A DNA stretch of 64,000 bases, from assembly GCA_012295275.1 (NCBI GenBank), contig CM022670.1:9734001-9798000 (forward strand), read 5' to 3'. The notes below the pieces were generated by a model. It made no database searches, was not told where the DNA came from, and was given only the letters and a program-made list of their open reading frames with translations. Within the stretch, counting starts at the first letter, position 1. Each line of letters starts with the position of its first letter. This stretch comes from Chrysomallon squamiferum. Lineage: Eukaryota > Animalia > Mollusca. The translations under genes were made by a program, and so were the position numbers. Of the stretch, positions 2,979 to 44,005 are shown piece after piece.

Positions 2979-4632
2979 TTTGCGACAAAGCAACTAGTGA
3001 ACTAGTTGTGGCCCACTGGCTAATGAGGAAAGAAACTTTCAACAACATACCTCTTAACAAAAAACAAATACCAAAAGCTATAGTACAAATCGTGATACCC
3101 AGCATTTTAATATTTAAAAACTGCGGGGCTCGTAGCATTTGCTTCAACTGCTACGTTGTTAATCCGACAGTGCATATGTAGTATAATATTTAAATAACTC
3201 CTGTATTCGTATCATATCAAATACCTAAATATTCTTAGTGTTCAGATACGCCTACAAATATCACTATTAAAAATATTAACATATATAAAAGATTTAAAAA
3301 AATAAAATAAAAATAAGTTTAAATAGAGAAAAAAAAAAAAAAAACCCAGCAACATTCGTTTACCCTTATTGTGTTATATTCTTATAACGCCTACAAATAT
3401 CAGTATTAAAAATGCAAACATATAAAAGACAAATAAAATTAACAGTATAAATAGAGAAGAAAAAAAAAAAACATTCCCATACCTGTAAAGTGAACAACCA
3501 ACACAAAAATGATTAATAACGCCCACCTGAAACTATTCCTAGTAATTCTGATGTAAACTCTTCGCTTTTCCTAGAAATGTTGTTTCCAAGAAGTGTACTT
3601 TAAAAGCATTACATGGATGTTCCCGATGTAACACTCTACCGCCGTTCACGATTCTTTTGTCAGTAACATATCTAAGGATATTGCCTTTTTTAGCTTACGA
3701 GAAATTTCCGTGGACCGATACGCTTCCCAGCACGATGTAAGTGAGGGGTTGCATCAAAATAAGTAGTTTACTTCACAGAATCACTGTATATGCAGTATTT
3801 GTACATATATAAGTATCTTTCTATAAAACTGAGCAGAAATCTGTGCGTTTTCTTTTCTTTTAGTTAGCTAGTTTTAGGCTCTTGTGATTTTTACCGTGTG
3901 CAACCGTTTATATATTATCATTCACATTTAAGCTACATATAGTTTAACGTCAAAATACATAACTATTTGATGTTGAAAATGATGGTATCTAATACGTTTA
4001 TACAGCATTAGTTTCGTGTATTTAGAAAATACACAGAGAAAAACAGTCTTTGCAATTTAAAATGGAACAAATAACTGTTCTGTATTTCGAAATTGAAACC
4101 ATGTTCTTTTAAAACTATTAGCGAGGTCCTCCATCATCCTATACTGACACAACCCCTCCATCAAGTCACGCTTCAGTTCACAGGCGTAGGATTGGGTTTT
4201 TTCTTGTATTGTGTATACACTTGTCAGGTATTATTCCCCAAACGACATTAACCTACATCTGGCGGTGAAACCGATATCCACACAAATACCCGATTTGTTC
4301 TTCACAAAAGGACACTAAATTGTATATACCTGTAAGGTTGTTTTCGAATGCATGTCAGTGTTTCCCAGATATTTTATTCTTACATAACAATGAAATACCC
4401 ACATCATACCTATAAAGATCTTTACTCAAACATATTTGAATACATACATACATTCACCACTTTCAAATTCATGTACGCCACTTAAAATATTTTCTTACTT
4501 GGTTTATCCACTTTTATTTCATCCGAATCAAAGTTAAAATAAAAAAACAAATTAAAAAAAACCCCTTCAAATGGCAAACAAAAGAAACAAAACAGTAAAT
4601 TAGAATGTTTCTTTAATTCGTAATTTATCAGT

Positions 4633-4708
4633 TTATTTCGCTACAGTTGTTGGGGCTGCAGGAGCTGCTTTGCGTGGCTTGGGAACTGTACCTTCACGGA
4701 AACCATTT
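4633..4708 (-). CDS. RPL37: RPL37 exon 4 ([13 protein letters not shown]...stop)
   Basis: TTTTTCAG acceptor; the TAA stop overlaps an AATAAA signal. Confidence 0.95.
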
Positions 4709-7700
4709 CTGAAAAACAAAACAGTAACTAGAAAACTATTTTCATTTTATCAAAATCCTTTCTCAATAATGATTGTTTTGTTTATGTCAGAAACAAAGAT
4801 TTTATTTTCCACTGAAATAGCAAGCAGGAAAACTATTCAACATTCACCATCAATATATTAAACTTTTATGTTTTTTAAAACTGATTAGCAATTACAAAGT
4901 CATGATTTTTGGGGGCCTATGATATATTTGAACGTGGTTTTTACACAAATTTTATGCCATTAATCGCTCTGCACTTTTTAAAATGGATAAATAACAAAAA
5001 TTTCTAAATATACATTCAGTGTATTTCTAATTATCGAGACCAACCAACAAATTATGATTGTAAATTTAGTAAAATTACTGTACCCGAAACTAAGTGAAGA
5101 ACACTCTTCAACATCAACATATTAAATTTTTATTCGTTTTAAAACTGATTAGTAATTACAAAGTCCTGATTTTTTTGGCTCATGATAAATTTGAACATAT
5201 TTTCTACCACTAATAACTGCACTTTTTAAAATGGATAAATAATAAAAAATTTCTAAATATACATTGAGTGTATTTGTAATTATGGAGACCAACCAACAAA
5301 ATATACTTGTAAAACTTCTGATTTTGTTTTAACGAGACACTGGCATTACAGGTAAACTGATTTCCATTAAAAAAAATTCTTACACCTCTACATATTATCA
5401 TCTTAGTTGACAGACTGAATTTTCAAAATTTAATTAACGACATTTTATAACAGTACAGCTATCCAGACATGTCAATATGTGTGCTAAAATATTTTGTATG
5501 CCTCAACGTTTGGCTGCAAAGAATTACTCAGCTGACATAATGGGAAGATATTTATCTTGAACAAATTGCAACTGAAATAAACCTATGATTTGGAAAGTGA
5601 AATGTACCTGAATCGTCTAAAGACTTTCTTCAAATGTCTCATTCTCCCTGTTCCAGTTGTTCGCCTCCTCTTTGACTTGATACTCCAGTTATCTACATGG
5701 AACACAAATAAGAAAATTAAGAAAAATTATCAGTTAAAATTTCACAACAAGCTACTCAAACCATTAGTTTATTAGACAATCAAACAACCAGGGATTTTCA
5801 GATATTTTAGAACTTTTTAAACTAACTGGATAACCACAGAGAAAGGACCAGGTATCTCCCTATCCAACTTTTTCCAGTGACAACGAACAATCTCAAGTGA
5901 AACAAGCAATAAACATACGTACATTTCAGTTACTGGATCATTCTTGATATAATGTGAACAAATCTTCAATAATATTATCAGTAGTTATGTATGTATGTAT
6001 AATGTGAAAGAAAAACCATATTCTTTTCCATAAATTATGTTACTACTTACTGAATATTATGATGCTAGTCATTTCAAAATGACCAAGCTAAAATTGGGAA
6101 AAAGTGGAGTTCCTGTTATGTATCATGTGTAACTATTTTTCACTCTAAACGTGATCAGTGATCAGTTACATAATATCAGCTGTATATTAGATTAGAACAC
6201 AAATGCATTCATTATGTGCAACTATCTTCAACTTGTGTACGAAGATCAGTATCTGGCAATCTTGTTACTGGCCAAAACAGTGTTAATTCCATTTCCTGAT
6301 GGGCAAAGTTGCCATATATTTTATGTGCACCTAGAAAATATACGTACCATTTAAAATGATTATACTGTTAAACTACCTTAATGTATAAACTTATTATCAT
6401 TCAGTGCATGTTGTTTTTTATATTTTAATAATTTGTGAGATTAATTTTCTTCTTCGTTCTGACTTCCAGCACATGTAACATGAAATTGATGAAAAGGTCC
6501 AAAAATGAAAGAATCGTTTGAAATACTCTTTGCTGTGAATTATGAAAAAAAAATGTCAAAATAGTGTATTTTCTTTATTATAGGTCACATTCACACATAA
6601 AATAACTATTGGTTCTGGTATTTATTGGAAAGTTAAAATAATTTAATCAGCTTGATAGTGATGGCCTCCAAAAAATTCTTATGACCAAAAGCAGGTAAGA
6701 TTAAATATGATACTGGGTTATGCATGGAACAATGCTAGACACAATTAATAATCTTACCTTTGATCCTTAGCATCAAAAGATACATTCACTATACAATGAA
6801 TACACACATACTTCATTCATGAGAAAATTTAAGAATGCATTGAATGATAAGATTAATAATATAATCATTTTAAACAGTGTAAATCCTTTCTAGATGTCAG
6901 TTTCAACATATATTCATTGGCGCTCATGTTATATTATCTCCTTGGGATTCCAGCATAAAAACAAGGGCAATAAATCCATAACTGTCTCGAGTCTCTATGT
7001 CTTGGTGTAAAATTTTAAAAATGGCCACCCAAATTTTGCATTATATTTTATATCATGATTTGTTTATTTTATTTTATTTTTTTTTCATTGTTTGGTTTTG
7101 CCCAGAAAAAGTAGTTAGTTAAAATGTAGCAGTTTTCAGTCACAAGCCTCTACCATCTTAAACAGTGTTTAACTGGACAAAAATATGCATCTATTATGAA
7201 TTTATGGGCTTTGAAATTACGGCTACTGCCTTAATATTCAACATATTTACTTAATACTGGTATCATTTTAAAGGGATTTCCAAGGTCTGAAAACTTTATC
7301 CATATAAATATATACATCGAACAGAATTAGACATTATTAATAATCTTACCTCCGATCTTTAATATCAATTGATACATACACTATAAAATGACTGCACCCA
7401 GATATGCATTTGAATACACATACACTTCATTCATGAGAAAATCTGAGAATGCATTGAATGGCATATGATGATTTTAAATAATGTATATCCTTTCTAGCTG
7501 TCAATAAAATGTTTGGCAGTTTCTAGGTATGTGCAGATAATCACCATTAGCGGCGGCCATTTTTTACCAATTAGCTGTTCCACTTCACACGTATTTTGCA
7601 TGAGGGGGCACCGTTTGTTCACTTTTCATTGGCTCGGGTTATATTCTTTCCTTGGGATTTCTGCATAAAAACACAGACAGGATATTCATAAGTGCTCACA

Positions 7701-10700
7701 ATTTCGAATATTTTGATTCCATTGAGTTTTGCTGTGCCTGTGCTGCTTTTTAGAAAATTACGAATTTTCAACACGCTTGAACCACTAAAACCAGCTACGT
7801 CACACGAACGAAAGGTAAGTGGACATTATAATTAGTTTTTTTTATCTTATTGTCTTTAAAATTTTATCAAAATGCTTGGACGCATTCAATTGTTATGATC
7901 GCCTCGTGAAATATGGTCTGTGTGTCATTTCGGTGTTCGATCGCCATTGTTACACTTTTTGGGAATTTTCAACATGCTACAGTAACTAAAACCGGTTAAT
8001 TGAGACGAATGAAAAGTAGCTGGACATAATAATTAGTTTTTTATCTTATTGTCTTTGAAATTTTGTCAAGCAGCTGCAAGCATGCTAACTAGAAACTCTA
8101 ATCTTCACCTCGTCAAGCATGGTTATTTCAACGTTACATCGCCGAAGTGAAAGTGTCATTGTGAATCAAACTTCCTGTTTAAGGACTTACGTTTGAGAAC
8201 GGATTATGCTGACTTAGTCTTCTTAAATTATCTTACATAAGAATGATGGAATAACATGTTCCTAACAATATATTAGTATTTTCATCCATAATTGTCTCAA
8301 AATCTCAGATGTTTTAGGATTTTAAAATCATAAAATTGACCAAACAATTATAATTTCTAAACACCAAATCAAATAAGCACTTGCTATTGCATTCTGTGTG
8401 GATTTAATTTGTACTGGTCATTCAAATTTTGCATTTCTTTTCATATAATTTTTTTTTTTTTTTGGTTTGACCCACAGTTGATGTTTTCATTTTGGTAATA
8501 CTGTGTCATAATTTCAACTTATTAAAACTTATTTCAGTTGTCTTCTCAGCTCTTTTCTTGTTATTTTCAGTGAATAACCAAGAGATGCCCTTGAGTAACA
8601 AGAAACAGTGCCCAATTAGATGTAACCAACCAAGCTTAGACAACATCTGCAAGAAAAGTATTCCACAGTTCCTGCAACAGATGAGTTTTATATTTACACT
8701 AGCTGTGGTAATGGTCAAACAACAACAGTTAGTGAATTATGTAGTCACTCCTAACCCTTCTGTGTTGAGACTTTCTGCTGAAGTAAAGAAAGTTGTGTAC
8801 CAGTTCAATAAGTTTTGAAATCTGGCTTATGCTGTATAATTTACCAAATTTATGTGTTTGTGTTCTGAAAAGTTTTTGAGAATGTAATCTTGAGAAAAAA
8901 AACAAGATGAGCCCCAACCTGGACTGAGTTGCAACCCACAATATGTTACTGCTTCCCCAGAACCACACAATTTATTGGATAGCAGTTCATACTGGGGAAA
9001 AGATTCAGAGGAATCTGCCATTCCAATATTGACAAAACCACCCATGAAAATCAGACAAACAAAAAACTGCCAGTCATGCAAGTTATTAAATAACTCCTTA
9101 ACAAATATGAGACTAAAACAGCTACAGCTTCAAAGGTCTACACACATTGCAATCTGAGATGTGAGAGCACAGCAAAAGAAAAAGGGATATGTAAAATTCT
9201 TAAACCATACAATCAGACAGAAAGAGGAACAGATAGCAAAACTTAAAGAAAAAGTACCATTTCAAAGGTTATGATGCATCTGCTCTGTCGAACTTTAAAA
9301 AAAGCCATGAACTGAAAAAGTACCACAGCGAAAAAAAAATAAAAAACTGAATTAGAAACTCTGCTCTCTGCCACAAACAAAATTTCTGAACTTAAAATTA
9401 AACTTGAATTAAAACAAATGGAGATAATTGATCTCCAGAGAGATAAAATCCTGCTTGAAGAAAAGCTTCATGAGTCAGTTAGTAAACTAAAATCAACAAA
9501 GTATAATGGAAAGGTCTATTCTGCAGATCTAAGAATGATTGTATTTGATGCCATTGTTAATCAGGTGCCAACCAGCAATATCCCTGTTCTTCTTCAGAAT
9601 TTTTTGTTTGAGGTGTGGTGTTCCACTGAAGGACATCCCACATAGAACCACTACTGAGGCAATGATAAGGGAACTTGGAGTAATAACTGAATTACAGGCA
9701 GCTGAAGCTGTAATTGAGAATAAAAGTTGTTCACTTGATTTTGATGCCACAACACAGGAGGGCACACATGTGAAAGTGTCCACATTGCCACACCAGAGAA
9801 CTGTTTGTTGCTGCAGTTGATGAACTGGCTGGTGGGACTGCTGATGATTACCATGAGCACATATCTGACTCCATTAATAACTTACTAGAACATACTTAAA
9901 CTTTCATGAGGATGATTATCAAACTGCAAGAACAAAAATAATTTCTAATATTTGCAATACCCTTACTGATCGATGCCCTGCAAATTATGCTGCAATTCAG
10001 CTTCAGAATGAAAAGTGGAACAAAACACTCAATGAATTAAATTGCCATGAACTGAAAACTCAATTGCAACAAAAACTCTTGCTGCTCTAAAGGTATGTGA
10101 AGCAGAAATCAGAATAGAAAAGAAACTTAAAGGGACAGACTGTTTAGATGGAAACATAGTAGTGCAGATGAACAAAATGAGGTTTATGGATAGCAAGGGT
10201 GATCCTCATGGTTTCACCATTTTTCTAGACCACAAAAACTTGGCACGTGGGATCTTGCCCAGATACAGAGGTAACCACCTACATATCCTTTTTCATATAT
10301 GTGGCGTTTTCACTCACTTCCATAATTTATTCACGAGTTTTCTGCAGAAGTGTGCATCGTGTGGTGGTTTACGGCATAGCATCCTAGCAGGCTTTGTGTT
10401 TGTTCCTGCACAAGTGGAAGTGCAGGTGCTTGGACTTATTGGGAAACTGCTCAGTGGACCTTGGATGAACAAGTTCTACCATCAGCAGTTGCCCCAGAAC
10501 AAGTAAACCACATTCAGGGCATTGAGCTTGTTAAGCAAGTTATTGCCAAACTGAAAGTCAGTGCACAGGCCCCTGAAGACACTGTCATGCAAGATGGATT
10601 TTTTTGGACATACACTTTTGCAAGAACCAACTCTGGAAATGCTCCAAGCAGCACCTAAAGACATCTCCCTGTTTACAAACATGATGAAGAGTTGTTTGAA

Positions 10701-13700
10701 TGCAACAGTTGTTGTCCTTGAACGGCAGTACAACAGATACTTCCACTGCAATCTCACTGACAGACTGAGGAATGAGACAAGGTTGGCCAGATGTCACAAC
10801 ATTGATGCAGAAGAGATCATGGGGATGTTTAGTTTCTTAAATGCTACTCTCTGCTACATCTCATGTAAAATGAGGGCCATCAAAAACAGGACAGTGGATT
10901 ATCTTGATGCCCTAGACAGGGAGACAAAAGATCGTATTATTAAAAAGGTGATCCACATGGGCCAACAACACAGACAGGACAAGCATACCAAGCAGAAGAA
11001 TCCGAGGAAAGAACAAAACAGGAGACAAGTACAGAAGCTGCAGGCAAAGGAGACCACAGAGAGGAACAGATTGGAGAGAAGATTGAAAAGTGTACACATC
11101 GACAGACTCTGTTGAATTCTCGGATCTCTCAGAGTATAAATTGGAAAACGTAAGTGAACTTTTATCTGGGAATTCAGTGGGTAGCATGATTTGACATATG
11201 TGGATTGATGATGGAGAAAGAGCAATATACAATGGAAAGATAGAGAAGATTACATGCAAAGGTAAGAAATATGTTGTAGCATACTGGGGAGCAAATGAAT
11301 CGTATGCAGATGCAGTAGACTACTGTATGAACATTCATGCTCTGGCTGCAGGTCTAACTGAGGATGATCTAACTATATAATATTTAATTTTGAATTCTAG
11401 TAGATTTTATGTACAGTTAGAAAGGTCAATTTATCGACATATTTCAAATATCATTTTTAATAAAATATTGTGTATACACGTGTGCTTGCATTTTAATTTT
11501 AAAATGTGCTAGAAATATCTGGTGCTGTTGAAAATGATTATATTTCTATGTTGTTTATATTTTTAATAGCTTGTAGGATGCATATTTTATTAAATGTTGT
11601 GACTTTTAATAAATACAATATGAATTTGTTCTGAAATAAACAAATTAATATTGTTTTGCCGATTACTAGCATTTGATGTTTAACTATATTCCTCTGCAAT
11701 ACATAAACTCATATAATCCTTGGAGTCGACTCCAGAAAAGTGTTGCCGGTCTTAATTAGGAGCAATACAATGTGTATGTAATTATGACACTAAGACAATT
11801 AAAGGCACAGGTATGGTAAGTGTCATTTGAAGCAGACAAAAGAATTTTCTTGGCTTTGTGTTTGTACTTCCTGTGCTTTGACAGCAAACAAAAGATACCT
11901 ATCAATGTATCATGTGACCATCGCTGACGTTTTCTCTGATAGAGCAAGTCAACACTTGAAGCAAAAATAGCCTAAGTTTTAAAACTGAACACTTTATGAT
12001 TTATCAGTTTATGGTTTTACGATAAAAAAAAATAAGTTATACATTTCTTATTTAATATTCTATGAATACCTCTGGTACTTAGATTCACAGAATAAATTCA
12101 TTGTACTGTTTTGTAGTACAGTTTGTTATGTTTATGATTTTTAATTTGCCTTTAATCGCAAGAATTTTTAAAGCAAAATATGAAGTTAGTTTATTTCTGA
12201 TCATATTCGTATTATAATGTATATACTTTAGAAATCCGAACACAGAAGAAACCTATCCATCCCAAAAGTTACTAAAAATATAAACATAGTTTCTATCGTT
12301 TTAAATAACAGAGGTTCTTTTATATGTTTCTTACTTTTGTTTCTTTCTTTCTTTCTTTCTGTTGTTTTTTACATTTATTTTTAGGCAAGCAATATACATT
12401 TGCGCACATAACTTTTGTTATAAATTTATACGCCATTGGTACTGATAGCGACGACATGTACGTTGTTAGAAATACCGAACTTTCACTTTCCTTAGCCAGT
12501 GTTAAGCAAAGGCGACACCGCCTTTATCTGAGGGCTTTGTAGAGTGACACCGCTTTAGCTTTAGGGCTGTTCACAATGGGCGGCGGAGTTCATTTACCCC
12601 CACCACATTTAACACTCTCATACAGACTACTGATTTAACACTTAACAAAAACAACATCACCATTTAAAAGAGCGCATATTAATCTGTATTTGAGTGTATT
12701 TGTTTTTCATGTTATATTTTACAGAAGGGATTTGGGACTGGTGGGAAATGGACAAAATCAGCACTTTTAATTGCTTTGTCCAATTATGTTTGTTAGGCTG
12801 CTGGTACCTTAATTAATATTCTTTTTAATTTTTACAAATATAATTGAACAGAGATTGGCATTGGTCTTCACTGAAAATTTCATCAAGAAAGCTTGATTAT
12901 TAACAAAGATACAGGGGAAAATGTTAAAATATTACTATTTTTGGTCACAAAACTCAATGACTTAAATAGCATTTAACTGGACGAAAATAAGTGTTTATTA
13001 AGGGGGTTTAAAATTGCTGCTACTTCCTTAATTTTTAACATATTCACTTGATTTTGGTATCATTTTAAAGAGGTTTACAAGCTCTACCCAACTGTCTTAT
13101 TTATTTTTGAAAAATGTGTCCACATACCTACAGTTTCACCACATTCCTGAAGATCAATTCATTATCTTTCACTGCGAACTTGTATTTAACGAGTCGCAAC
13201 TCTAAATTATAGTACAATATACAGTCTCTTTCTCACATGCATGAAACCAACATGGACGTATGACAGTTGAACTTACATGTCCGTTTTCTGGGTGCTGGAT
13301 AACCGCATGATGCACATGTCTTTTTTTGTATATGATATGAACGACGGCCACACCGACGACAGTGTGTATGAGTCTTGTTATGTCGCTTACCAAAGCTGGA
13401 CGTTCCCTTCGTCTGTTGAAAGAAAATATATATATTTACCAGGTTGATTTGGTAATGACAGATTTGCTTTTCTGATTTTTCGATTATTTGTATGATATAT
13501 TTAAATAAACAAATCTATCCCAGTATCCGACAAGTGAGAGCTATCGTATCTGTATCGTTATCATTATATTACATTTCACGTGTTTAATCAATATCAGTAA
13601 TACCTAAAATAAGCTCAAGTGGATAACAAAATATTTTCAAATTTGGTTTCTTTAAATGCTCATTTGTCAAAATGACTATTTCCATACATAACGCAAATTG

Positions 13701-13754
13701 TTTATTTAGGGTCGATGAAAACAGATTCTCAATATTGTCTTAAACACCAACCAT
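4633..13754 (-). CDS. RPL37: 60S ribosomal protein L37 (eL37), 4 coding exons, 99 aa
   Basis: Exons 13752-13754 (ATG), 13277-13412, 5608-5692 and 4633-4708 join through GT-AG sites to give [99 protein letters not shown]. The C4 zinc finger is intact and the CDS totals 300 nt. Confidence 0.97.
4850..5315. repeat. Tandem duplication (about 260-bp period, 2 diverged copies) in RPL37 intron 3
   Basis: AAAACTGATTAG.AATTACAAAGTC, TGCACTTTTTAAAATGGATAAATAA and GAGACCAACCAACAAA each occur at 4850-5065 and again at 5110-5315. Confidence 0.85.
5608..5692 (-). CDS. RPL37: RPL37 exon 3 ([29 protein letters not shown])
   Basis: 85-nt exon with AG/GT flanks and the hallmark [10 protein letters not shown] motif. 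Confidence 0.96.
6905..7300 (+). mobile_element. Degenerate, internally deleted relic of the same hAT-type family
   Basis: 6913-6990 resembles the element's left subterminal region (7625-7700: TTCATTGGC...CCTTGGGATT...GCATAAAAACA). 7135-7290 resembles its right subterminal region (12940-13085: TTTAACTGGAC.AAAAT...TGGTATCATTTTAAAG.G). No TIRs remain. Confidence 0.7.
7524..13130 (+). mobile_element. Full-length decayed hAT-superfamily DNA transposon (hATw-like), 5607 bp, in RPL37 intron 2, antisense to the host
   Basis: Perfect 10-bp TIRs TAGGTATGTG (7524-7533) and CACATACCTA (13121-13130). Perfect 7-bp TSD CAGTTTC (7517-7523 and 13131-13137). Internal transposase pseudogene and subterminal direct repeats (7762-7875 vs 7963-8075; 12513-12570). 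7-bp TSDs are the recognised signature of the hATw group. Confidence 0.88.
8586..11380 (+). pseudogene. hAT-like DDE transposase pseudogene with multiple frameshifts and stops, plus a C-terminal Tudor/Spindlin-like segment
   Basis: Fragments in alternating frames: N-terminal coiled coil; [10 protein letters not shown] (D at 9743); LTDRCPAN (D at 9968); LNCH (10037-10048, CxxH region); [11 protein letters not shown]; [13 protein letters not shown] (E at about 10810, equivalent to hAT ERxFS); basic coiled coil; terminal domain 11177-11380. Confidence 0.85.
13277..13412 (-). CDS. RPL37: RPL37 exon 2 ([15 protein letters not shown]...CRRC...CASCGYP)
   Basis: 136-nt exon with CAG acceptor and GTAAGT donor. 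Confidence 0.96.
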
Positions 13755-13795
13755 TTTCGTCCAGCGGAAGTTAGAAAGGATTCACAGGAAGTTAT
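13752..13795 (-). promoter_or_regulatory. RPL37: RPL37 exon 1 with TCT (5'TOP) initiator and ETS-like GGAAG sites
   Basis: Minus strand reads TCCTTTCTAACTTCCGCTGGACGAAAATG|GTTGGT: a polypyrimidine start typical of ribosomal protein genes, with ATG directly followed by the donor. CGGAAG and CAGGAAG lie at about 13765 and 13785. Confidence 0.8.
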
Positions 13796-15386
13796 TCTTC
13801 CCTAAAGTGAACCTCTTAACGAGGAGCATCAATTGATGGGTTGTCGTTCGTATATTGATACAAACTAAAATATTAAATTACAAAAATTACAGATATATCT
13901 TTCAGTTTTATTATTATAACTGAAACGATTCATTAACAATTATCGTATTATATTTTTCTATTATAAATGAAAATATTATTTGAATAAAATAACACCACTG
14001 ATTTTCAAATAAAATGAATCCGTATCAAATAATTGTGTGCAAAGCATTTAAATATTAAATACAAATATATCTTACATCAATAGTGGGTTTCTGTCTTGTT
14101 ATTCATATGCTCATGAACCATATGCATTAGGTAACTGTAGATTAAAAGTGCAATATTAAATAAAGCATTCCTTCATTCAGTCATGCATACTTACATAAGA
14201 AAACATACATGCATATTTTTATTTTTTTTTTTTCTGAACATTTTGTGGAACTAAAGGAAAAACATGCCTCGATTAATAAAAATGAAATATCCTTCTGCTT
14301 CTTGCCATCTCTGTTTTTTAAATATATACTTTTTTCACAAGCCATACCAATATATGCAAAAAATAACCAAAAACAATCAAAAGATAAAACAATATTTTTT
14401 ATTATAAATAATACTTCCATAAAAAAAAAATAATAAAAAAATTAATAATAAAAAAATCCCTTCAAAACCAATAAAATATCAATTTTAATTCACTTGGATC
14501 GTCTTATCAAAATGTGTGCAGCTTTCAACTCAGATTCAAAATGACATTTATTACAAATACTGGAACATATTTAACCTCTTGGGCAGATCAAAAATGCAGT
14601 GTTCACTATAACCCCAAAATATGTTATTTGTAATTTATTTTTATTTATTATTTTTTTAACTATAAAAATGACCAAACATTACATAAAATTCTTACAATAT
14701 TAAAACATTTTTTAATAATATGTTTATTTTCAGATGTTTTATTTTATTAGTACTTAGTTATTACAAAGTGCCTTAAAAAAGTTTAAATGAAATCCAATAA
14801 AAAGTCAGTACATGAAATATGGAGGCTTTTATGTCACATTATTTTCACTTTAGATAATCTTTTTTCCTCTCTTTTTCCTTTTTCCCTTTTAATCCATGAA
14901 AAATCTGGAAAAATCACCATGTTCATGTGAAAATGTTATTATTATAAATGAGATATTTTTTAATATGAAGATCACCTTTTTTCATCTGAAGTAGTTCCAA
15001 AATCTGTATCATTTTATCTGTTTTATTTTTTATATATATATAATTATTATTATTATTTGATTTTATTTAGTTTGTTTTTCAGGATCTTTCATTTTTTTTT
15101 TTTGTCTTTATTTACTCAGTCTTTATATTTTATTTATTTATTCATTCTTTTATATTAAAATACAATACATACAATGCTTATTTCTTTTTTATGTTTTTGA
15201 GAGAACACTTCTAAATTCTTCGGTACAATTTCCCAAACTTTCTTAAAATAATTTTTGTTCTTTGATTTTTACCCAATTTATTCATCGGGTCTTCACACAA
15301 AACACTCGAGATATTCCTGTATGATTCCATGAGAAGTTCCAAGTATACAGACCACTCTTATTTTCAGCATTAAAAATTATGTAATA

Positions 15387-15606
15387 TCATTCAGGCTTTT
15401 TTAATGATAAAAACAAAACATCTTTGATTATATTTCTCTCTGGGTTAATGCGTTTCAGTAATTGTGCAATTGTATGAGTCATTTCTTCATTTGTCATGTT
15501 CAGTTTTTTTGCAGTTTTCTTGAATTTTTGTGACAGGTCTTTTGTTGTCATTGGTTTCCTCATAAGATATCTTCTTATAGCTTCCTCAGTTATTCCATCA
15601 CTGGAA

Positions 15607-15641
<35 letters not shown>

Positions 15642-15862
15642 CAACAACAACAACAATAATGAATAAGATGATGCAGTTTGTAACATGAAACTGTTATCTG
15701 TAAAAATAGTCAATAAATAATAATAATAATTATAACGATAATGATGATCGAGATGCAGTTAGTAATATAAAACTATTATTTCTAAAAATAATAAGTTAAA
15801 TAACAACAATAATAATAACAATAGCATAAATAACAACAACAATAATAAATATTAACAATGAC

Positions 15863-28844: not shown

Positions 28845-30700
28845 TTAGTTTTTACACACAGGACAACATAGCTCCTCTACTTCTATGGGAGATTCACAGT
28901 ATGGAACGGGACAAAATTCTGTTTTACACTCAATCTGGCCTCCCTGAAAAACAAAATTAAAAAAACAGATCATTATATTAACACTGAATTGAAAGATAAA
29001 TGAATTATTTGTTTTAAGGACACAGTAACAATCATTTTGCATTTTACATATAATTATTGGACAGTGATAATTTTTACCTGATTTTTTACTTGTACTTAAT
29101 TTTTTTTTTCTCATAAATTCATGGTCTTTGATAACAAACAAAGAATGATTTGATCAACCGGTGTAACTTTTAAATGTCAGTCATACTAAAGTATTTTGAT
29201 TAAACAAAGGCCAGCTGATGTTATATAAATAAATGTGTGTTATTTTATTCAAATTACATTACTTATGGCACAAAACAAAATATACTGAGCTAAAAACCAA
29301 AGACATAAAACCATTTCTGATTATTGATAACAAAATTCTTACACAGGTCAAATTAGTAATATATTTTTTTTTATAATAAACTAAATCCAGGTCTATAATT
29401 AAGTACATTCTACATACGTAAATGTATTAGATTTGTACACATTTGGTAGATTTAATGAAAGTAAGTCAGCTGTCATTTGAGAAAACATGATTCACTGGTT
29501 TTACTTACTTTGCACATGCATGTTTTGCATTTGTCGACTTTCCACTTAGAACCATTCACATGTTTTCTTCTGTTTTCATCTCGACAGTGAAGACTTGTTT
29601 TGGCCTTCACCAGGCGATATAAATATTTCATCTGCAAGTAAGAGCTTTACATAATAACCTGACATCACTCTTCCTTTCACAAACATAAATTTTTTTTTAA
29701 AATCCTTATCTTGGTATTTACTTTTAAATCATTGCCTGTGAACACAAATTTATTGCTGAAACAAAAATTATTATATTATGTAAACTTCTTTCAAGACAAT
29801 AAAATAAAAACAGAATTTATTTTTAATTATCATTTTTAGTTTTATTTTTTTTTTTTTATTTAAGTGAACGAATACAAGATATAGAATAAATTTATTTTGT
29901 TTTGTCTTGAATTGGTAATGAATGTTTTCAAGACAAAATTTTTTCCTTTAAAAACACATTACTCTATAACATTAAAAAATGATTTGACAAATTATTAATA
30001 TTATTTATGAACCCCTACTTCTGCACTATCATTATATCACTGCACAGAACACAGCTATTACGCCTATCCAAGTGATTAAATGACAATGAGCCATAACAAA
30101 TCAAAATTAATGAAATTGTAGCAGAATTTGGGAACCGAACGTTTAAATCTTCACGTTCCATTACATTTTAATTTTTCTCATTTCTTTTTATTTTTGAAAC
30201 ACTAAAAATAATAATTCTATAAGAATATGTTGCAAATACTATTTTTTGCCACACCATTTTTTTTTTTTATCTTCTTTTTCTCTTTTAAATCTTAAATTTT
30301 AAATTGCTGTAATTTTTGTTTAACTGCAATGTTTATTAAAACACATATTTGAAATAAAAAGACAAAATAGCTACCCTTCTCTGCAGCTGATGCATCGTGT
30401 CTGACATTTCTTCCAAAGCCGCCTCCATTCCTTCTATCCTGGAGTCCAGCTGAAACACGTCTTTCTTTACAGACTCAGACAGGTTCTTTGACAACCAGCT
30501 GCTGTCAAAATGACGAGGAATCTTTCTGGCTTTGCCACCGTCCACCTCCAGCGTGGGGTACTCCAAGTAGGTGATGGTGTGCGTCGAGGTGTTTGAGGAT
30601 TCTTCATTTATGGGTTTCTCGTAAGCGTAGCTGTGTTCAGCTGATCTGCGGCCGCGGAAATGTGGAGCAAACGAATGAGGACGATTATCTCGTCTACAAT
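28845..30700 (-). CDS. PXDN: Peroxidasin C-terminus: RGRR convertase site, coiled coil and vWFC domain
   Basis: HFRGRRS at about 30645-30656; [22 protein letters not shown]; [24 protein letters not shown]...CCPVCKN*. Confidence 0.9.
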
Positions 30701-31698
30701 CTGAAATTTTCAAAAAGACTGGGTCAATTTTACAATAAAAAAAAAAAAAAAAGTATTTAATATGCAAGGTGTTCTCAAATATGATGTATTGATGCTTGTA
30801 AGAAAACATTGATTTGCAGTCTTGTCAGGAAAATTAAAATCTTTGATGTGTTATTACCATTTGACATATGTGTTTACTGCTTGTTGATCTTCAATTTGTC
30901 TCATGAAATTAAGGTTAATGTCTGTAGATTATTAATATTTTAAACCATTATTTTTTCTATTATTTATTTATTTATTGCTTTGTGTAATTGTTGTACTGAA
31001 TATTTCCAATACAAATTCAAGAAAGGGGAAAATAAAAAATCTTATAGAACAGTACAAGTCACTTGCAGAGATCTCTCTTTTCATTTTTAGAATGCCATCT
31101 TGATCTAGGGTATACAGGTGATGTCTTCACCATCTCCTGTTACCTAATGTTATCCTCCTCACTTACCTGTTGATGTAGTTTTTGCTTTCACTCACCTTCA
31201 CAGCAGTCGGTCCACATTCTGAGATCAACGCGTGGAATGTCATCACAGCTGATGTACTCCTCGTCTGATTCTACCCTCTTGAACACGTCCAGCTGCACTC
31301 GGTCTATCTGGTCGCCGTTGTCACAGATGACACGAGCCAGAGAGGCGCGTTTTATCTGAGCGACTTGTTCCGCTGGGAAAATGCTGGGATTTTCATACCA
31401 GAACCTACGACAATAAAATTGTTTGGTGTTGCAGAGAAGAAAAAAAACAGTTTTGGAATAGTATAATAAAACCATAAACACAAGTTTATATAATTTTTGG
31501 TTTATACGTGGTGAAATTCCTGATTAAAAGTAAAAATTAACAAATAAGTACAAGAAAATAAATATATATTTTTTGTAATCTTTAGATATTTTTTGTTTCT
31601 AAAATTTTTATATATATACATATATATATCATTTCTAGAAACCAAAACAATTCATATAACTTAATTAACTTATACATACATACATATATGGATGTGTA

Positions 31699-31766
<68 letters not shown>

Positions 31767-31772
31767 TGTATG

Positions 31773-31809
<37 letters not shown>

Positions 31810-34800
31810 TTGTATATGTATATGTGTATGCATGTACAGTATATGAGGTTTTATTTTTTATGGGGGGAGTCATCCTTTTAAAATATTTTATAAATTCTGG
31901 CAGACAATGGGTAATCTATGATTGTTTATTGTGACAAATTCAAAGTGATGATAAATGAAATATACTTTAACACACCAACATTATTCAGTCATAACTGATT
32001 AACAACACAGCATGTGCAAGTTATGTTAAAGTATCCAGAAAATAAATGAAGCAAATCATTTTTTTATCCTAGTATAATTAACAAATTTTTATAGTTTCTA
32101 TTCACATTGCTTGTGTGTAAAAGAAATATAACACTAACTGCATTTAAAGCAAAGGAAAATGTAATTGACATGTAGTTTCTGTTCATGCTCCTTGTAATAA
32201 TGTATGTAAAGAAAACAGTGAAAAGTTAATTTAATGTATACATAACTAACCAGTAATTGCTGTTAGCACTGACTGAGCTTGTGATTGATAATGTATGTAA
32301 TTAAATTGTTTATTTTCTACAAGCAAAGAAATAAATACCTATCACCATCTCTTAGTCTCTTGAACTGGTCTGCCAAGATACACACAAATGTTGGACCAAT
32401 TTTTGCACCCTCAAGTGGTGTCTCTGACAAAGCTCCAACAAACAAGTCAACATTATCTGCAAAACAAAATATGGTTTACATATATACCACAATACATACA
32501 AAAATGTGTTTGTCGTTGTCTGTTCATACATGTGTATATAATTATAAATATAAATGCACACACACACACACACATAAAGACACATACTAAAATCCCAGAT
32601 CAAAATAATCAATCCAAATTACCTGGACTGCCATAGAGTGCCTGCATCTTCTGTCTGGTGTCTCGGTCTGTGATTTCATTTCTGAAGTCGTTAAATGATG
32701 CAGCCACACTCAAGTTACAGAACTTTCTGTATGAATTGTAAAAAGGCATGCCATGGTCACGTCCCCGCTGAACATTCAGTGAAGCAAGGTCCATCCCTAT
32801 TGCGTTGGACAGGATAAACAGCTTCTCAGTCAGTTCTGAGTTCAGCAGTTCATTTGGTTCTTTCTTCTTGGCCGGAACAGCGAACATGCCTCTAAGTAAT
32901 GGATCGATTCCTCCTTCCTCCATGATACGATATGGTGAGAAGAATGCTTTGTGAAGAGGAAGATTACCTTCTGGAATGGGAAGAAGCGATTCATTCAGCC
33001 GGTACATGATAGGCTGGACTATTGAATGTCCAAACCTGAAGGCAGCCGTAGCAAATTCATTTACAATTGAAGGGTTTACATTCGGGTCATAACCTTTGTA
33101 TTCTCCAATCATGGCCATTCCTTTGGGTCCAATGACATATGGAAGCCAGTGTGAGTAAGTGATGTGTTGTATGATGGCTCCTATCAGCTTCCTTGTGGTG
33201 TGGTAGATCTTGTTGCCATCCCAGTGTGGATTCAACTGGCGAAATATTGTTGCAATCCGATTGTGTTCTCTGAACCAAAGTGTGTGCATGGATGTGAGAG
33301 CCAAGTGTTCATTGACTCTGTGGTCTCCAGCTATGAAACAAGGAACATGTCTCTTGGATGATTCGATCTGGCAGTCCATTTCTGCCAGTTTATTGTCGTC
33401 AAATGGCAGAAAGCGTGACCCATGAATTGTAATTGGTCCCTCTCTCAGTAAACCCCTCCCAGTGGCCAGTTCTCTTAAATGCTCGGCTTCCCTCGCTGTG
33501 CTACCATAAATCTGCGAGGCATCAATGTAAGATGTCAGGGTGTTGATCTGTTCTCTAGGTGCCACGGTGTTGAAGAAAATGGACGTGGCTCCAGAGTTGC
33601 AAATGGCGCTTGATCGTGCAAAGCCCATACACTGGTTGCGTAACTCTGAGATCACTGTTTGGCACTGGAATGGGAAAACAGGGACTCTGATTTTCACAGG
33701 TTTCGTTGCACCGTCTCCCATCACTGAACCTCGCTGCACTGACTGCCTGTGGAGTGAGGGACATGTCATGGTCCATGAACTGACCCCACTGCATCAGCAT
33801 GTGCGTGTTCTTCTCATCCTGGGTTATGTGATGTGCCGACATCATCAGGGACGACACCAGACGTGGACTAGGAAGATGGTGTCCATTGTAAAGCTTAGCT
33901 CTGTTCCAACCTGAAAGAGTAAAAATGCATTTTTGTAATTTTATATGGTCTAGTTTTACACTTAATTTTTCTCTCACAGTTTCTTTTTTTTTTTTTTTTT
34001 TTTTTTTTGTTTTTAATTATTTTTTATCTGTGGTGATTTTATATTATTCTTAATTTTTAATTAGTACAGATAGAAGACAGTTAGAACATTGTATAATCTT
34101 TTGTTTTGTTTTTCATTTTCCTGGGATTCATTTCTTCTTTTTACTTTCCATTCAATGTAATATTTACTTATAAACAAAGAAAACAACTAACTGTCAGCTT
34201 CTATTAAATGTAGAAACAATAATTTGGTTACATTCAATAATTCACTGAGCAATGAGTTGATTACATTCAATATTTCACTGAGCAGTAAACCAATCATATT
34301 TGATATTTCACTGAGCAGTAAACTGACTACATTCGATATTTCACTGAGCAGTAAACTGACTATATTCGATATTTCACTGAGCAGTAAACTGACTACATTT
34401 GACATTTCACTGAACAGTAAACTGACTACATTCGATATTTCACTGAGCAGTAAACCGATCATATTCAATATTTCACTGAACAGTAAACTGACTACATTCA
34501 ATATTTCACTGAACAGTAAACTGACTACATTCGATATTTCACTGAGCAGTAAACTGACTACATTCGACATTTCACTGAACAGTAAACTGACTACATTCGA
34601 TATTTCACTGAGCAGTAAACCGATCATATTCAATATTTCACTGAGCAGTAAACTGACCACATTCAACAATTCAGCGAGTTGTTAACGGAGCATACCTACG
34701 GGGGTGTTAAATCCATTTTCATATATTGGAGGCAGCAGTCTCTCGAAAGCCATGTTTGATGCCCCCCACTGAGGGTGTATCTGGTTGTTGCAGGTTCCGT

Positions 34801-36036
34801 CGTGGGTGCGGTACTTGTGGTGGAAGCAGGTGTCTGAGCAGTCGACGTGGCGCGTCTGCTGGTTGCAGCCAGACATGTTTGCTATCAGTGCTAGGTGAGC
34901 AGGAGAAACCAGCTCTCGGTATCGGTTTTCTAGGAGTAACATAAATAAAAATTTGTAAATCTTCAGCATACTAATTCTGTTTGTAAGGTATATATATATA
35001 TATATATACAAAATGTATTTAATCTTTTGTATTTAACTAATAAGAACAGTTAGAATAATTTCACAAAATTTAAAAAAAAAAAAAAAAATTAAAAAATTAA
35101 AATGATTGTTAGTTTTATCACAGTTTTAATAACCAACTAAAACTTATTAAAACCAAACACATCAGTAGAATGGACATTTTTTTAACTCTCTTTTATAATA
35201 AAAATTATTTAAAGTGGGGTTTTGTTTGTTTTATTTTTATCTTTTATTTTATTATTATTATTTTTTAAATCTGTGGTGACTGAAATAAATAACCTTTTTT
35301 TTAAATTTAAAAAAATTGTTTTGGTATCTTGACCAATCTTTACTAGCAATAACTTATATTTTTATTTTACTTTGAATCAGACTGCTGTGATCCTCTTTAG
35401 ATAATGTATTAACTAATGTTATAAGAGAAAAAAGGAAAATGGCTGTGCCTAAAATCTTATATTTTTTGATCTTCAGATAAGAAACTTTAATGTACCATGT
35501 CCCTCCAGATTATAGTTGTGTCCTTGTCTAACATGGTTTGTAATTATCTCCAGCGTTTGTTCAAATATCTCCTCAGCTCTGGCCAGCTCCAGGGCCTCTG
35601 GTGCTGGATATTTGAATAAAAACATCAAATCCTGCACAGAATGAGTTCGGCTTCGGTTAAACAACTCCAGCACTGTGTTGTTGATTGCTTCGTTGACACT
35701 GTTAGTTGCATCCCGGATAGCTCCCAGAACAAACCTGTCTCCTGGTCTTGTCTGGGTTGAAGTCCCTGTTAAATACAAATACAAAGACAGACACAGTGAA
35801 ACAGACTATATGGGATATTACAGGCAGTGAAACAGTGTTAGTGCTAAAACTATGAGTATAGCAAGCTATTGTATTTTGAATCACACTATAATATTTGTAT
35901 AATCCACTGTATTTATATCCAAAGAAACATTTTTTGTACTTCATGTTAGTTTTAATAGACTGTCATTTTATTATTATTATTATTATCATTTTACCCACTT
36001 CATAATTTTAGACACTGTAATTATTAGAAATTTAAC

Positions 36037-36074
<38 letters not shown>

Positions 36075-39000
36075 ATTTTATAATACCATTAAATAAAATA
36101 GGGTATGATTTAAAGTTTTGGAAATTTTAACTGCACAATTAATAATCTGTGAATTATAATTTCAAATTGGTTCAAAAGATGAAATATGTGAAAACACTCT
36201 TTATGGGTCTAAGGCTTATTAACCAGTATGAAATTGGTTGAAATTATGAATTATGTGAAGCACTGTATATGGTAGAGTCTACATGACCATTTCCAGATAT
36301 GATTTAGGCACAACATCTTGAGTCAAAAGATCAATAATAAAATAAATTCCATTGACAGGGTAAAAAAAACAACCAACACAGCCACATTCAGTTTCAAGTG
36401 CTCACCTTGAACTAAGAGATTGATGGATTTGACTGCTCTTCCTGCAGAGTTGACAGCAATGCAGTCATAGCGACCAGAGTCACCCAGCTGAACGTTCCTG
36501 ATGGTCAGTCGTCGTCCACTGAGGACAAACTTGGAGCTGGTGTGGACTCGGCGACCTTCTCTCTGCCAGCGTATCTGAGGTTCTGGGGTGCCCAGCGAAG
36601 AACACTCGAACGTGATGTCAGAGCCAGTGGTAGCTGTTGTGTCAGCGCGTTCTTCTCTGAACGATGGTGCCACTGAGAGAGAAAACGTTTTTGTAAGAGA
36701 ATGTAGTAAATGAAATTGAAGTTTATATTTTAAAATCATGTCTGAGATGAAATGTTTTTAAGGTCATATTAAATTAATGAAATTAAAAAAGGAGTAATAG
36801 TTAAATAAGTGAACTCAAAATCAAGACAAACTGTATGAATATATGGATTTTTTGGGGGGGTTTTAACAGTTAAATTAGTAATAGTTTCATTTCAATCAAA
36901 TATGAATTGTTTTAAATATTAAATCTCTTTATTCAAGAAATTTCTTAGATTCAAAAAATCAGAACTGTTTTAAATATGAAATTCCGTTTAATCAAGAAAT
37001 TTCTGTAATCCATCTATTACTTTAAGACAAAAAAACAACACAAACCATTGGGTATTATTTTCAGATCAGCATCAGCACTGGCCTCGCCAGCAGCATTCTC
37101 AGCTTTACAGGTATATGTGCCTTCATCGTCAGCCTCTGTGTTCAAAACAGACAGCTGTCTGCCTCCATTTCTGATCTGGTATCTATGGAGACTTCTAAGT
37201 GGATGACCTGCAGAAATTATTTGTTGTTCGTTAACAAACATGGCTAAATGTATATGTCTTTTAAAGATGAAGAATATCCATAGTATAACAGAAGTTAGTA
37301 ATTTCTTTACAGACATCACTAAACATGTATACCATAAAAATGATACACAAGTTGCAGGAACATAAGAGAATCCCTTTAACAAATGCAGAATTGCATGTAC
37401 TTTGAATACATAACAAAAAAACAACAAATATTAATTTATCACTGATAATTGCAAAATGGACAATATCTCATTGTTAGTTCAGAGAATTGGTTTCGTCTTT
37501 TAGACATATGTAAGGAAGTTACAACTAGTTCAGTCATGTTAATAACATACATTAAATATAGTTTCTTGCTTGTGGAATGTTATTTATAAAAACAAAAACT
37601 TCATGACTGCATTTCAGTGACAACAGTCTAATTAAAAAACACAACAGTTCAGACCTGCTCTGTAGTATTTTGTGTTACTAAAGCCGTATTCTAACAAACA
37701 CACAATTAATCTTAAAAACCTTTTGGCAATATAACTGACAGGATAACAGAGAATACATTAAACAAACTAACAATCGAGAATTTCAAAAACTATGAACAAT
37801 TAGATTTTACTGATCGCAATTTTTTAAAACGGAAATCTTTATCTCAGAACCTGTCACACGGAATATTACAAATTGTTCTGTCAATGTTACAGAAATGAAT
37901 TAAATTTTAAAATATCTCACCATCTTTTGACCATGTTATGATGGGGCTGGGATCTCCCTCTGCAGAACACATGAAGTTAGCTGTGTGTCCTTCCAGTACC
38001 AGCACGTCCTGGGGGTTCACGATGAATGAAGGGGAAACTGAACAAAGAAAACAACATATTTTAAAGCTGTATCGTTCCAATAAAGTATTTTATTAATATC
38101 AGTTACCTTCTCCACCTCCTCATCTTTTAGTGTCAAATGAGGTGAGATAAGATTAATATGAGGTGGATTCAGATTTGGAAAGATCAAGCAAGGAAATGTC
38201 AAGTTTAGATCAGAATGTCAAAATATAATAAGAGTCGGGTTGGGTTGGGTTGGGTTTGGTTGGGTTATGACAGATCAGGATAGGTTGGGTCAAATCAGAT
38301 GAAATCATGTATTTGTAAAATAATGATGGATAATGATAATGATAAACATGACAGATATCAATTATAATAAATTCTCCAGCAAGATATATATTACAATGCA
38401 AACTTAATGAACTATTCTCTGAAGGTATAAATCTAACAAAATAACAAAGTACCTTGAACACTGACTCTTGCAGATGCTGAAATAGTATTGACACTGTTTG
38501 CGGCTCTGCACTGGTACAGTCCACGATCGTCCACCTGAAGGTTGGTGATGGACAAAGCTCCATTGGCCAGCAAGGAGTATCGACGACTGATTCTGAGTGG
38601 ACGTCCATTCTTTGTCCAGGTGATGTCTGGTCTGGGGTTCCCAATGGCTCGACAAGGTAGTGTGATAGACCGGCCAGCCACTGCTGTAATGTCATCTGGC
38701 ATCTCCATGAACTTTGGCTTTTCTGTAACACAGTTAACAGAGACAATAAATATCATCAGTTTAAATTCAGAAGGACTGCTTAGCTGGTGTCTATTAAGGT
38801 TTCAAATCTATACTTTTTTGTACATAATCTGAATACAGTGTATATAGAAATCAAGCCTTTGATAACTGTTGCCAAGAAAAAAATTTCCATGGTAATTTGT
38901 TCTTTCAGCAATACAACAAACTGAATAATTCCTCATCAACATGGCTCAAGCACAACAAATCATGTTTTTAAATTCATGTGGTAGTTTTCTTACCTGGTTC

Positions 39001-39170
39001 TCCAAAATACCTCAGCTCCACTTTGTTAGTTTTCACCTCCCCTGCAGCATTCTTAGCTACACATTCATAAACACCCTGGTCACTGTCAGTGGTTTCCTGA
39101 ATCATCAGAGTTCCATCTGCCAGAATACTGTACCTGGAGTCTTGCTGATTGATCTCATTGCTGCAGAATA

Positions 39171-39242
<72 letters not shown>

Positions 39243-39320
39243 TAACAATAATAATAATTAATATAATAGTAATAATAATAATAATGAATGAATGAATAAT
39301 ATCATAATATTAATAATGAT

Positions 39321-39359
<39 letters not shown>

Positions 39360-42300: not shown

Positions 42301-42677
42301 AGTTTTCATTAAATACTGTGTATATGTGTGTATCTGCGTGCATGTGTGTGTGTGTGTGTGTGTGTGTTTATAATCTTACCTCTACAATCTAGAGAAATAA
42401 TATCATTTTCATTAAAGTATACATTATCAAATATTGAAACACTGCCTAATTTGGGAAATTACTCAAAATAAGAAACATGTAGCAATACATTACATATGAT
42501 AAATGTATTGGCCATAATAAGAAAAAAACTAAATATGTTGAAAGATGCTAACCATGCTACAGATAATCTATGATCTTTACAGAAAGTCTAAGACAATTTT
42601 TTTATAATATATTTACAAAAAATAGCTTGGTTAAAAAAAAAAAAAAAAAAAGATATATAAAGTTTTTTTCTGTGGGT

Positions 42678-42725
<48 letters not shown>

Positions 42726-43466
42726 CCCCTAAATTTACTGATACTGAAATCATATTAATCAAATAGGCTTGCAAATAAATAAAACTGTCAAGGAAACATG
42801 TCTAAAAAAGAAAAGAGGAAAAATCATAATAAAACCCCCCAATCCCTCCTCCCTCCCCGCAAAAAAAACAACCGACACCAACCCATTTAAACAAGGTGAA
42901 ACAAGCCAAACGTTAATAGATTAAATCACAGAGATAAAAAGAGAGCTTTATCATCCATAAATAAAAACAACATTATAAAGCAATTTACAAGGAGGTAGCA
43001 ATTATCAGGGGCGTTAGCTTAATGAGAAATTTTTATGACAGGGAAATACTAATTAAGAGAGCTGAAACCTGATTTCATGCATCATCTCATCATCATCATC
43101 AGATGCAGGATACATTATACTGATAGGAGGAAATTCTCAACATATCGCGAATGCTACACTTTGTCGATTATGTTGCTGATGTAATGCACAGTGCTGTAGG
43201 CCCATTTATTATTTCTTTAGTTTTTCTTTTGTGTGCATGTGTATGGGGGTGAGTAACTGTGTGTGTATGTTTGGCATGTGTGTCAAGTGTGTGTGTGTGT
43301 GTGTGTGTGTGTTTGTGTGTGTGGTATTTGTGTGCATGGTATTTGTGTGTGAAGTTATGGATATCTGTTTACTGATGTATGTATATACATATATATACAT
43401 GAATGTGTATGTGTGAAGGTGTGATATTTGTGTGTGTAGTTATAGATATCTGTTTACTGATATATG

Positions 43467-43501
<35 letters not shown>

Positions 43502-43958
43502 AATGTCTATGTGTAATGTGTGTGTGGCATGTGTGTGTCTGGACATGTTATTACGGATATATCTATGTGTATGTCTCTCTCTATGCTGATTCATTTTCTG
43601 CCACAGACTGTTGATTATAAAAATAGTTATTTATTACAGTTTGTTTATCTTACTTTACCTGTGGTGGCTAAATACAGACAAAGTTCTTTTTATCTCTGAT
43701 GTTGTTTTCTTTTTACCATTTGATGTAAAACAACATATTAGGAATATGTATATATAAAAAAAAAAAAAAAAAAAATGCACCATCCATCAAACTCAGGACA
43801 TGTTATGTTTGTCATACTTTATTATTAGCAATGGATAGTTTTGAGTGACTAAGATTAAAGAAAGAAAAAAAGAAGATTCATGCAAAATAACACTTGAAAT
43901 TTTTAATTTATGAAGTTTTTTGATAATGTGATTCTGTGTTTTAACTGGAAAGAATATG

Positions 43959-44005
<47 letters not shown>

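Follow-up and report, generated by a model that had tools for sequence, protein, structure and literature searches.

Does a cut-and-paste transposon of animals carry a histone reader of its own, and could such a reader have brought it close to the start of an active gene? These questions are raised by a stretch of 64,000 nucleotides from the mollusc Chrysomallon squamiferum (contig CM022670.1, positions 9,734,001 to 9,798,000; hereafter “the window”). A preliminary description of the window, made from the letters alone, had noted a hAT transposase whose tail resembles the Tudor-like repeats of the Spindlins and which was inserted near the start of a ribosomal protein gene. Here we ask what the element is, whether the tail belongs to it, what the tail resembles and what the position of the insertion can tell us.

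A decayed hAT-like element in an intron of RPL37

By comparison of its two ends, the element was delimited as a decayed DNA transposon of 5,607 bp (5.6 kb) that occupies positions 7524-13130 of the window. Both ends start with TAGGTATGTG. The terminal inverted repeats, at 7524-7537 on the plus strand and 13117-13130 on the minus strand, are identical over 10 bp and agree at 12 of 14 positions. They are enclosed by an exact 7-bp target-site duplication, CAGTTTC, at 7517-7523 and 13131-13137 (plus strand), for which base composition gives a chance of about 5e-5 per site. We call the element hAT-like with a 7-bp duplication.

The left junction was spanned by contigs in all three DNA-type runs (the runs come from three studies, and the window itself may derive from one of them), and contigs of at least 90% likeness stacked over the element far above its flanks, although depth of this kind is not copy number. 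Because the junction is bridged and contigs pile up over the element, we conclude that the insertion is real and that the family is repeated in C. squamiferum. The copy itself contains multiple stops and frame changes, and its CpG ratio is 0.09-0.26 over 8-11 kb, as would be expected for an old, methylated copy. An empty-site joint was not found among the 15 listed of 53 contig joints, a type of evidence in which contigs cannot show absence.

An older repeat-like stretch (6310-7518) adjoins the left end and has inverted arms at 6310-6364 and 7464-7518 (73%). The possibility that the element had landed in one arm of this repeat was rejected, as the sequence after 13137 does not extend the arm (925 of 1000 shuffles scored equally). 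Positions 7118-7288 resemble the right subterminal region of the element (12923-13085) at 74% and in the same orientation. The 10-bp terminal motif occurs a third time at 2632-2641, oriented like the right end and with no partner in the window (about 0.1 expected by chance); this is possibly the end of a non-autonomous relative. Finally, contigs of all four runs join 9182 to 11377 and represent a derivative of the family with an internal deletion that removes core and tail.

The host gene was identified as RPL37 (4600-13779, minus strand; Pfam L37e, E 1e-22). Its introns, given by one RNA contig, are 13413-13751, 5693-13276 and 4709-5607, and the exons (13752-13779, 13277-13412, 5608-5692 and from 4708 down) encode a complete L37 protein. 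Intron 2 holds the element, which is antisense to the gene and 139 bp past the exon-2 donor. Intron 2 minus the element measures 1,970 bp, and the RNA contig indicates that RPL37 is still spliced across the element. In addition, high-depth DNA contigs of two runs join RPL37-like sequence across 4649-5686, and these may derive from a processed or repeated fragment at another place in the genome. Upstream of the RPL37 start, at a distance of 1.6 kb, is the last exon of TFIIF-alpha (15390-15758, minus strand); further on, a peroxidasin-like gene with haem peroxidase and Ig domains lies within 30300-48100, also on the minus strand.

The transposase core is predicted to resemble that of Hermes

The element encodes a decayed transposase (9035-11106, plus strand), 40-70% identical to intact relatives by tblastn, with a coiled-coil region, a catalytic core and a long helix; at least four changes of frame and several stop codons interrupt it. 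Intact relatives align by tblastn along 9035-11377, in several frames and at 37-71% identity. The catalytic motifs are legible in the window copy: the first Asp in FDATTQEG, the second in TDRC, the NCH of a CxxH motif and the Glu in HNIDAEE.

We folded an intact relative of 976 aa, P0010, together with 16 other sequences (pLDDT 75). The best structural match of P0010 was Hermes (Foldseek E 1.3e-6; Z 15.8, rmsd 3.9 Å over 345 residues), while the next row after Hermes reached Z 10.6. This agrees with the assignment to hAT made in the preliminary description. The predicted order of P0010 is a small helical N-terminal domain, a disordered linker, a coiled coil, a DDE core (about 350-815), a 58-residue helix (819-876), short helices and a Tudor barrel (909-975). 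From the fold, its catalytic residues would be D423, D499, C524-H527 and E778, the last of which is invariant.

The likeness to the hAT superfamily and its Hermes transposase (PDB 8edg, 4d1q, 6dwz and 2bw3) consists of an RNase H-like DDE core with a helical insertion, a CxxH motif and short terminal inverted repeats. On the other hand, identity to Hermes is 10-12%, and the proteins of this family, which are 930-1020 aa long, add a coiled coil, the long helix and the Tudor tail. In 20 relatives no Pfam match at E<=1 was obtained for the BED finger or for the hAT dimerisation domain, and no Pfam transposase family matched these relatives. The usual hAT duplication is 8 bp as compared with 7 bp here, at one site.

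Elements of the hATw type make 7-bp duplications and occur in Hydra. Proteins of Hydra vulgaris belong to the transposase family described here, and we presume that hATw is a candidate label for this 7-bp hAT-like family. In PMC13465017 and PMC12905397 the label is used for transposable elements of Hydra and amphioxus. PMC12730594 describes hAT subgroups with 5-, 6- and 7-bp duplications; its name for the fungal families with 7-bp duplications is hAT7, and it groups them with Ac/Tam3.

A metagenome scan for related loci produced 73 pattern matches, from which 23 loci were taken. Three of these loci (L002, L004 and L011) had a TAGG-type end on one side. Among eight long loci there was no second complete element and no end pair with a duplication; the 7-bp rule therefore rests on one site. 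Two other structures were observed in this set. In a related family, subterminal arrays of repeats of about 88 bp and of 188 bp lie downstream of the transposase (L011, positions 13570-15040; also L016, L022 and L006). In locus L005 a related transposase is bracketed by a 370-bp inverted repeat (78%; 5414-5771 and 13132-13498), which suggests that some families have long terminal repeats or that a second element is present.

The tail is part of the transposase and is conserved

The transposase tail (11108-11380, plus strand) comprises a helix and the Spindlin-like Tudor domain (approximately 11177-11377). The frame 11102-11377 crosses one TGA (11192-11194) and ends at a TAA (11378-11380), exactly as the peptide had been read in the preliminary description, that is, through a single stop. 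A second defect of the window copy is a frame change near 11106, which takes the tail out of the reading frame of the transposase upstream. Contigs of sibling copies from all four runs have TGC (Cys) at the position of the stop and two extra bases behind 11106, and because of these two bases the tail joins the frame of the core in the sibling copies. Furthermore, position 84 of the tail is Asp in sibling copies and Gly in the window copy. Since the sibling copies do not have these three defects, the stop, the frameshift and the lost Asp are peculiar to the window copy.

The 20 relatives were found with the fragment 10555-11112 as the query, and the state of their tails was read by eye. Fifteen of them have, like the sibling copies, a complete tail in frame with the transposase; one breaks inside the tail, three end ahead of it and the remaining one is a fused gene model. 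A profile of the tail gave 406 matches at E<=0.001 among 1.84 billion cluster representatives. Among the 150 matches listed (149 of them new), 68 of the new ones have more than 60 aa of upstream sequence, which matches the transposase in 64 cases, and 108 of the 129 complete tails end no more than 2 residues from the domain. The tail is thus one full domain at the C-terminus of a transposase, whereas the Spin/Ssty proteins combine three repeats in a single globule.

Hydra vulgaris is one source of named relatives; the others are the sponge Ephydatia, the fish Leuciscus and the bivalve Solemya, and the stored records of these three themselves have no tail. Intact near-identical copies of 931-976 aa exist. 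Mean pairwise identity is 58% in the core, 45% in the tail, 39% in the long helix, 31% in the N-terminus and 30% in the coiled coil, which makes the tail the second most conserved region after the core. One gene model of Solemya velum, P0021, joins a piece of the transposase to NAA35 (Mak10); this fusion is probably an annotation artefact.

The tail is predicted to fold as a Tudor barrel

We modelled the tail of the window copy, with X at the stop, together with 13 relatives. In the model (pLDDT 89, pTM 0.75) a strand barrel is preceded by one helix and closed by another, so that a Tudor/SH3-like barrel is predicted for the last 70 or so residues. The Tudor fold of the tail is well supported.

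A Foldseek search with the tail returned nothing at E<=0.001, and its matches were mostly Tudor, chromo and Sm folds. When 986 candidate chains from Foldseek were structurally re-aligned, the top 18 rows were Spindlin1 or 2B, all of them through repeat 2 (residues 123-192 approximately), with 21-24% identity, rmsd 1.9-3.3 Å over 62-67 residues (best 1.9 Å over 62) and Z 6.2-7.2; here as elsewhere all Z values of the tail are below 8, a range that the tool calls common. An unbiased search of 48,161 chains gave the Tudor domain of plant RDM15 (Z 6.2 at 27% identity), TraI (6.1), Spindlin-4 (6.0) and the Tudor domain of BAHCC1 (5.4), and three of its six top rows, namely RDM15, Spindlin-4 and BAHCC1, are methyl-lysine readers. 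Non-reader barrels score close to these, TraI at Z 6.1-6.2 and Tn7 TnsB at Z 5.3.

With a 42-sequence profile of the tail, 17 of the 22 matches in the PDB at E<=10 were Spindlins (best E 0.0031). These rank first among solved structures at E 0.003-0.04, values that sum two Spindlin repeats, the best single repeat reaching E 0.77. An unrelated hydrolase was also matched (E 0.028). Our first profile, of 14 sequences, had three Spindlin and five SMN rows among 13; a second profile (19 tails) and two single tails retrieved no Spindlin from the PDB at E<=10. The Pfam Spin-Ssty family (PF02513) was recognised in 2 of the 149 members (best E 0.041) and in no sequence of the first alignment, which had 14; its gathering score was not reached. 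The most frequent Pfam match was instead PF21743, the Tudor domain of plant PTM/DIR17 (12 of 149, best E 2.7e-5), and none of the Pfam matches passed its cut-off. The Spindlin signals are modest: the E-values add two repeats, the second profile and the single tails miss the Spindlins, and Pfam is weak.

The structural match to repeat 2 of Spindlin1-4 (PF02513; PDB 7e9m, 4mzh, 6qpl and 4uy4) spans the whole repeat, from the leading helix to the C-terminal end. As compared with this repeat the tail has about nine extra residues, mainly in an acidic loop after strand 3. RDM15, PTM/DIR17 and BAHCC1 are host chromatin proteins that read mono-methyl marks, not transposases. The earlier reading of the tail as Spindlin-like thus stands insofar as repeat 2 is the best match by structure and by profile, and falls short at the Pfam cut-off; Spindlin as the nearest kin of the tail is the best reading and is not proven. 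An evolutionary link to the Spindlins had also been suggested as possible. The comparisons do not single out the Spindlins among Tudor readers for such a link: RDM15 scores no more than 1 Z unit lower, and PTM/DIR17 gives the best match in Pfam.

A candidate aromatic cage and an acidic pair

As described in PMC3967050, Spindlin1 holds K4me3 in a cage formed by F141, W151, Y170 and Y177 and anchors H3 Ala1 and Arg2 via E142, D189 and D184, of which D184 serves Arg2 and D189 serves Ala1. We compared these positions in 127 complete tails, using the numbering of P0001 (all coordinates on the plus strand). By profile alignment, Trp34 (11201-11203) corresponds to F141 and is aromatic in 121 of 127 tails, Tyr43 (11228-11230) corresponds to W151 and is aromatic in 124, and Tyr61 (11282-11284) corresponds to Y170 and is Tyr in 125. 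The printed alignment ends at Y170, and the counterparts of Y177, D184 and D189 lie beyond the residue-by-residue match. Tyr74 (11321-11323; aromatic in 111 of 127) is the putative counterpart of Y177 and fourth cage residue. Positions 84 and 89 (11351-11368; Gly and Asp in the window copy), each acidic in 123 of 127 tails, are the putative counterparts of D184 and D189. Their register is taken from the end of the structural alignment, where residue 92 of the model falls on residue 192 of the chain, and holds if the last nine residues are gapless.

Of the 127 tails, 117 have an aromatic residue at each of the first three cage positions, 101 at all four, and 95 have all four along with both acids. 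For an aromatic cage of the kind referred to in the preliminary description, the three residues that align to Spindlin1 are conserved candidates. The counterpart of E142 is not kept, being acidic in only 7 of 127 tails, and the invariant Trp62 has no counterpart in the Spindlins. Among the C. squamiferum siblings, Tyr74 reads His in all contig depth of two runs and in a minority in the other two. Past the YW motif, the second half of the domain averages a net charge of -7.1, and the first half is mildly basic (+2.4); the domain is acidic overall, with a Lys-rich loop between strands 2 and 3.

A possible chromatin tether

The reading that we prefer, with a probability of roughly 0.55, is that the window holds a dead copy of a hAT-like family whose conserved C-terminal domain is predicted to fold like Spindlin repeat 2; through this domain the enzyme would be tethered to chromatin, with a methylated histone tail as the likely ligand. 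Binding of a methylated histone by the tail is a prediction of the model, and a likely one. The cage would take methyl-lysine, most likely H3K4me2/3; this mark is favoured because two acidic residues sit where Spindlin1 anchors Ala1 and Arg2 of H3. The 58-residue helix could act as an arm that keeps the barrel away from the catalytic core, and several barrels in each transposase multimer may provide avidity for nucleosomes. The outcome would not be a fixed landing site but a soft bias toward chromatin with the mark, or else improved access to the donor ends.

It could be speculated that the barrel does not read histones and is an SH3-like module for DNA binding or multimer assembly, as in Tn7 TnsB, TraI and the C-terminal domains of retroviral integrases, its aromatic residues being structural. 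TraI and TnsB do score close to the readers and the Lys-rich loop would suit such a role; moreover, neither a BED finger nor the hAT dimerisation domain is matched by Pfam in this family, and another part of the protein must take over their functions. However, TraI and TnsB share 9-14% identity with the tail as compared with 21-27% for Spindlin1 and RDM15, the sequence profiles select Tudor readers and not TraI or TnsB, and the domain is acidic overall. We consider a non-reader module unlikely.

Another possibility is that the tail is a methyl reader of a different mark (H3K9me, H4K20me, H3K4me1 or methyl-arginine on a host protein), which would lead the transposase to silent chromatin or to a cofactor rather than to gene starts. 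The structural neighbours are varied in this respect: by their entry titles RDM15 goes with H3K4me1, BAHCC1 with H4K20me1 and Spindlin1 also with H4K20me3 and K9me3, and the SMN Tudor domain is among the matches of the first profile. Against this reading, if the register of positions 84 and 89 holds, two conserved Asp residues occupy the K4-register positions of Spindlin1. We consider a different mark unlikely.

The insertion near the RPL37 start

The distance to the gene start, given earlier as about 640 bp, was found to be 642 bp from a RPL37 start at 13779, which was placed by a pyrimidine-rich motif (the RNA contig reaches 13773). The kilobase 13001-14000 is the most CpG-rich of the region 4-16 kb (observed/expected 1.07), and the insertion is at its edge. 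H3K4me3 is expected at a CpG-rich promoter region of this kind. Targeting of promoters by the family would nevertheless rest on one insertion, and the RPL37 site fits this idea but is no test of it.

The most probable explanation for the position is chance or open chromatin, whatever the tail does. DNA transposons, hAT elements among them, favour open chromatin even if they have no reader, and this is a single insertion that was noticed because it fits. The window is also gene-dense: besides RPL37 it holds TFIIF-alpha, the peroxidasin-like gene and probably a fourth gene. With about four starts over some 58 kb, about 14% of sites would lie within 1 kb of a start, an estimate for which only the RPL37 start was located. 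Against this, the site is at the edge of the CpG-rich kilobase, where H3K4me3 is expected. The related loci had no complete ends with annotated flanks, so no flanks could be tied to gene starts.

The most far-reaching form of the idea is that a widespread cut-and-paste lineage of animals, equipped with its own reader of H3K4me2/3, lands near active gene starts and that its domain is directly co-descended with the Spindlin repeats, by capture in either direction. Taken as a whole, we regard this as rather doubtful.

Discussion

These data reveal a real and conserved new combination of domains on a known kind of element. Our literature search, which had most subscription journals and Repbase Reports outside its coverage, found no hAT transposase described with a Tudor or Spindlin domain. 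Similar arrangements, in which a methyl-histone reader is attached to a DDE recombinase, are the chromodomain integrases of chromoviruses and the PHD finger of RAG2. Their reader folds and their elements differ from those of this family, and RAG2 is a separate subunit. Chromodomains steer integrases to heterochromatin, and to our knowledge the choice of chromatin by a built-in reader is known mainly for retrotransposon integrases.

A histone reader inside a DNA transposase would, if confirmed, mean that a cut-and-paste element is able to choose chromatin. The system is compact, with a domain of 60 residues and intact copies of 931-976 aa, and it bears on how transposons choose safe or expressed sites and on the steering of transposon vectors. 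It also bears on the origin of the Spin/Ssty repeat, which PMC3967050 describes as a vertebrate-conserved family. Mammals use Spindlin proteins in chromatin reading, and a shared origin of these with the mobile domain, if true, would mean that one was captured from the other.
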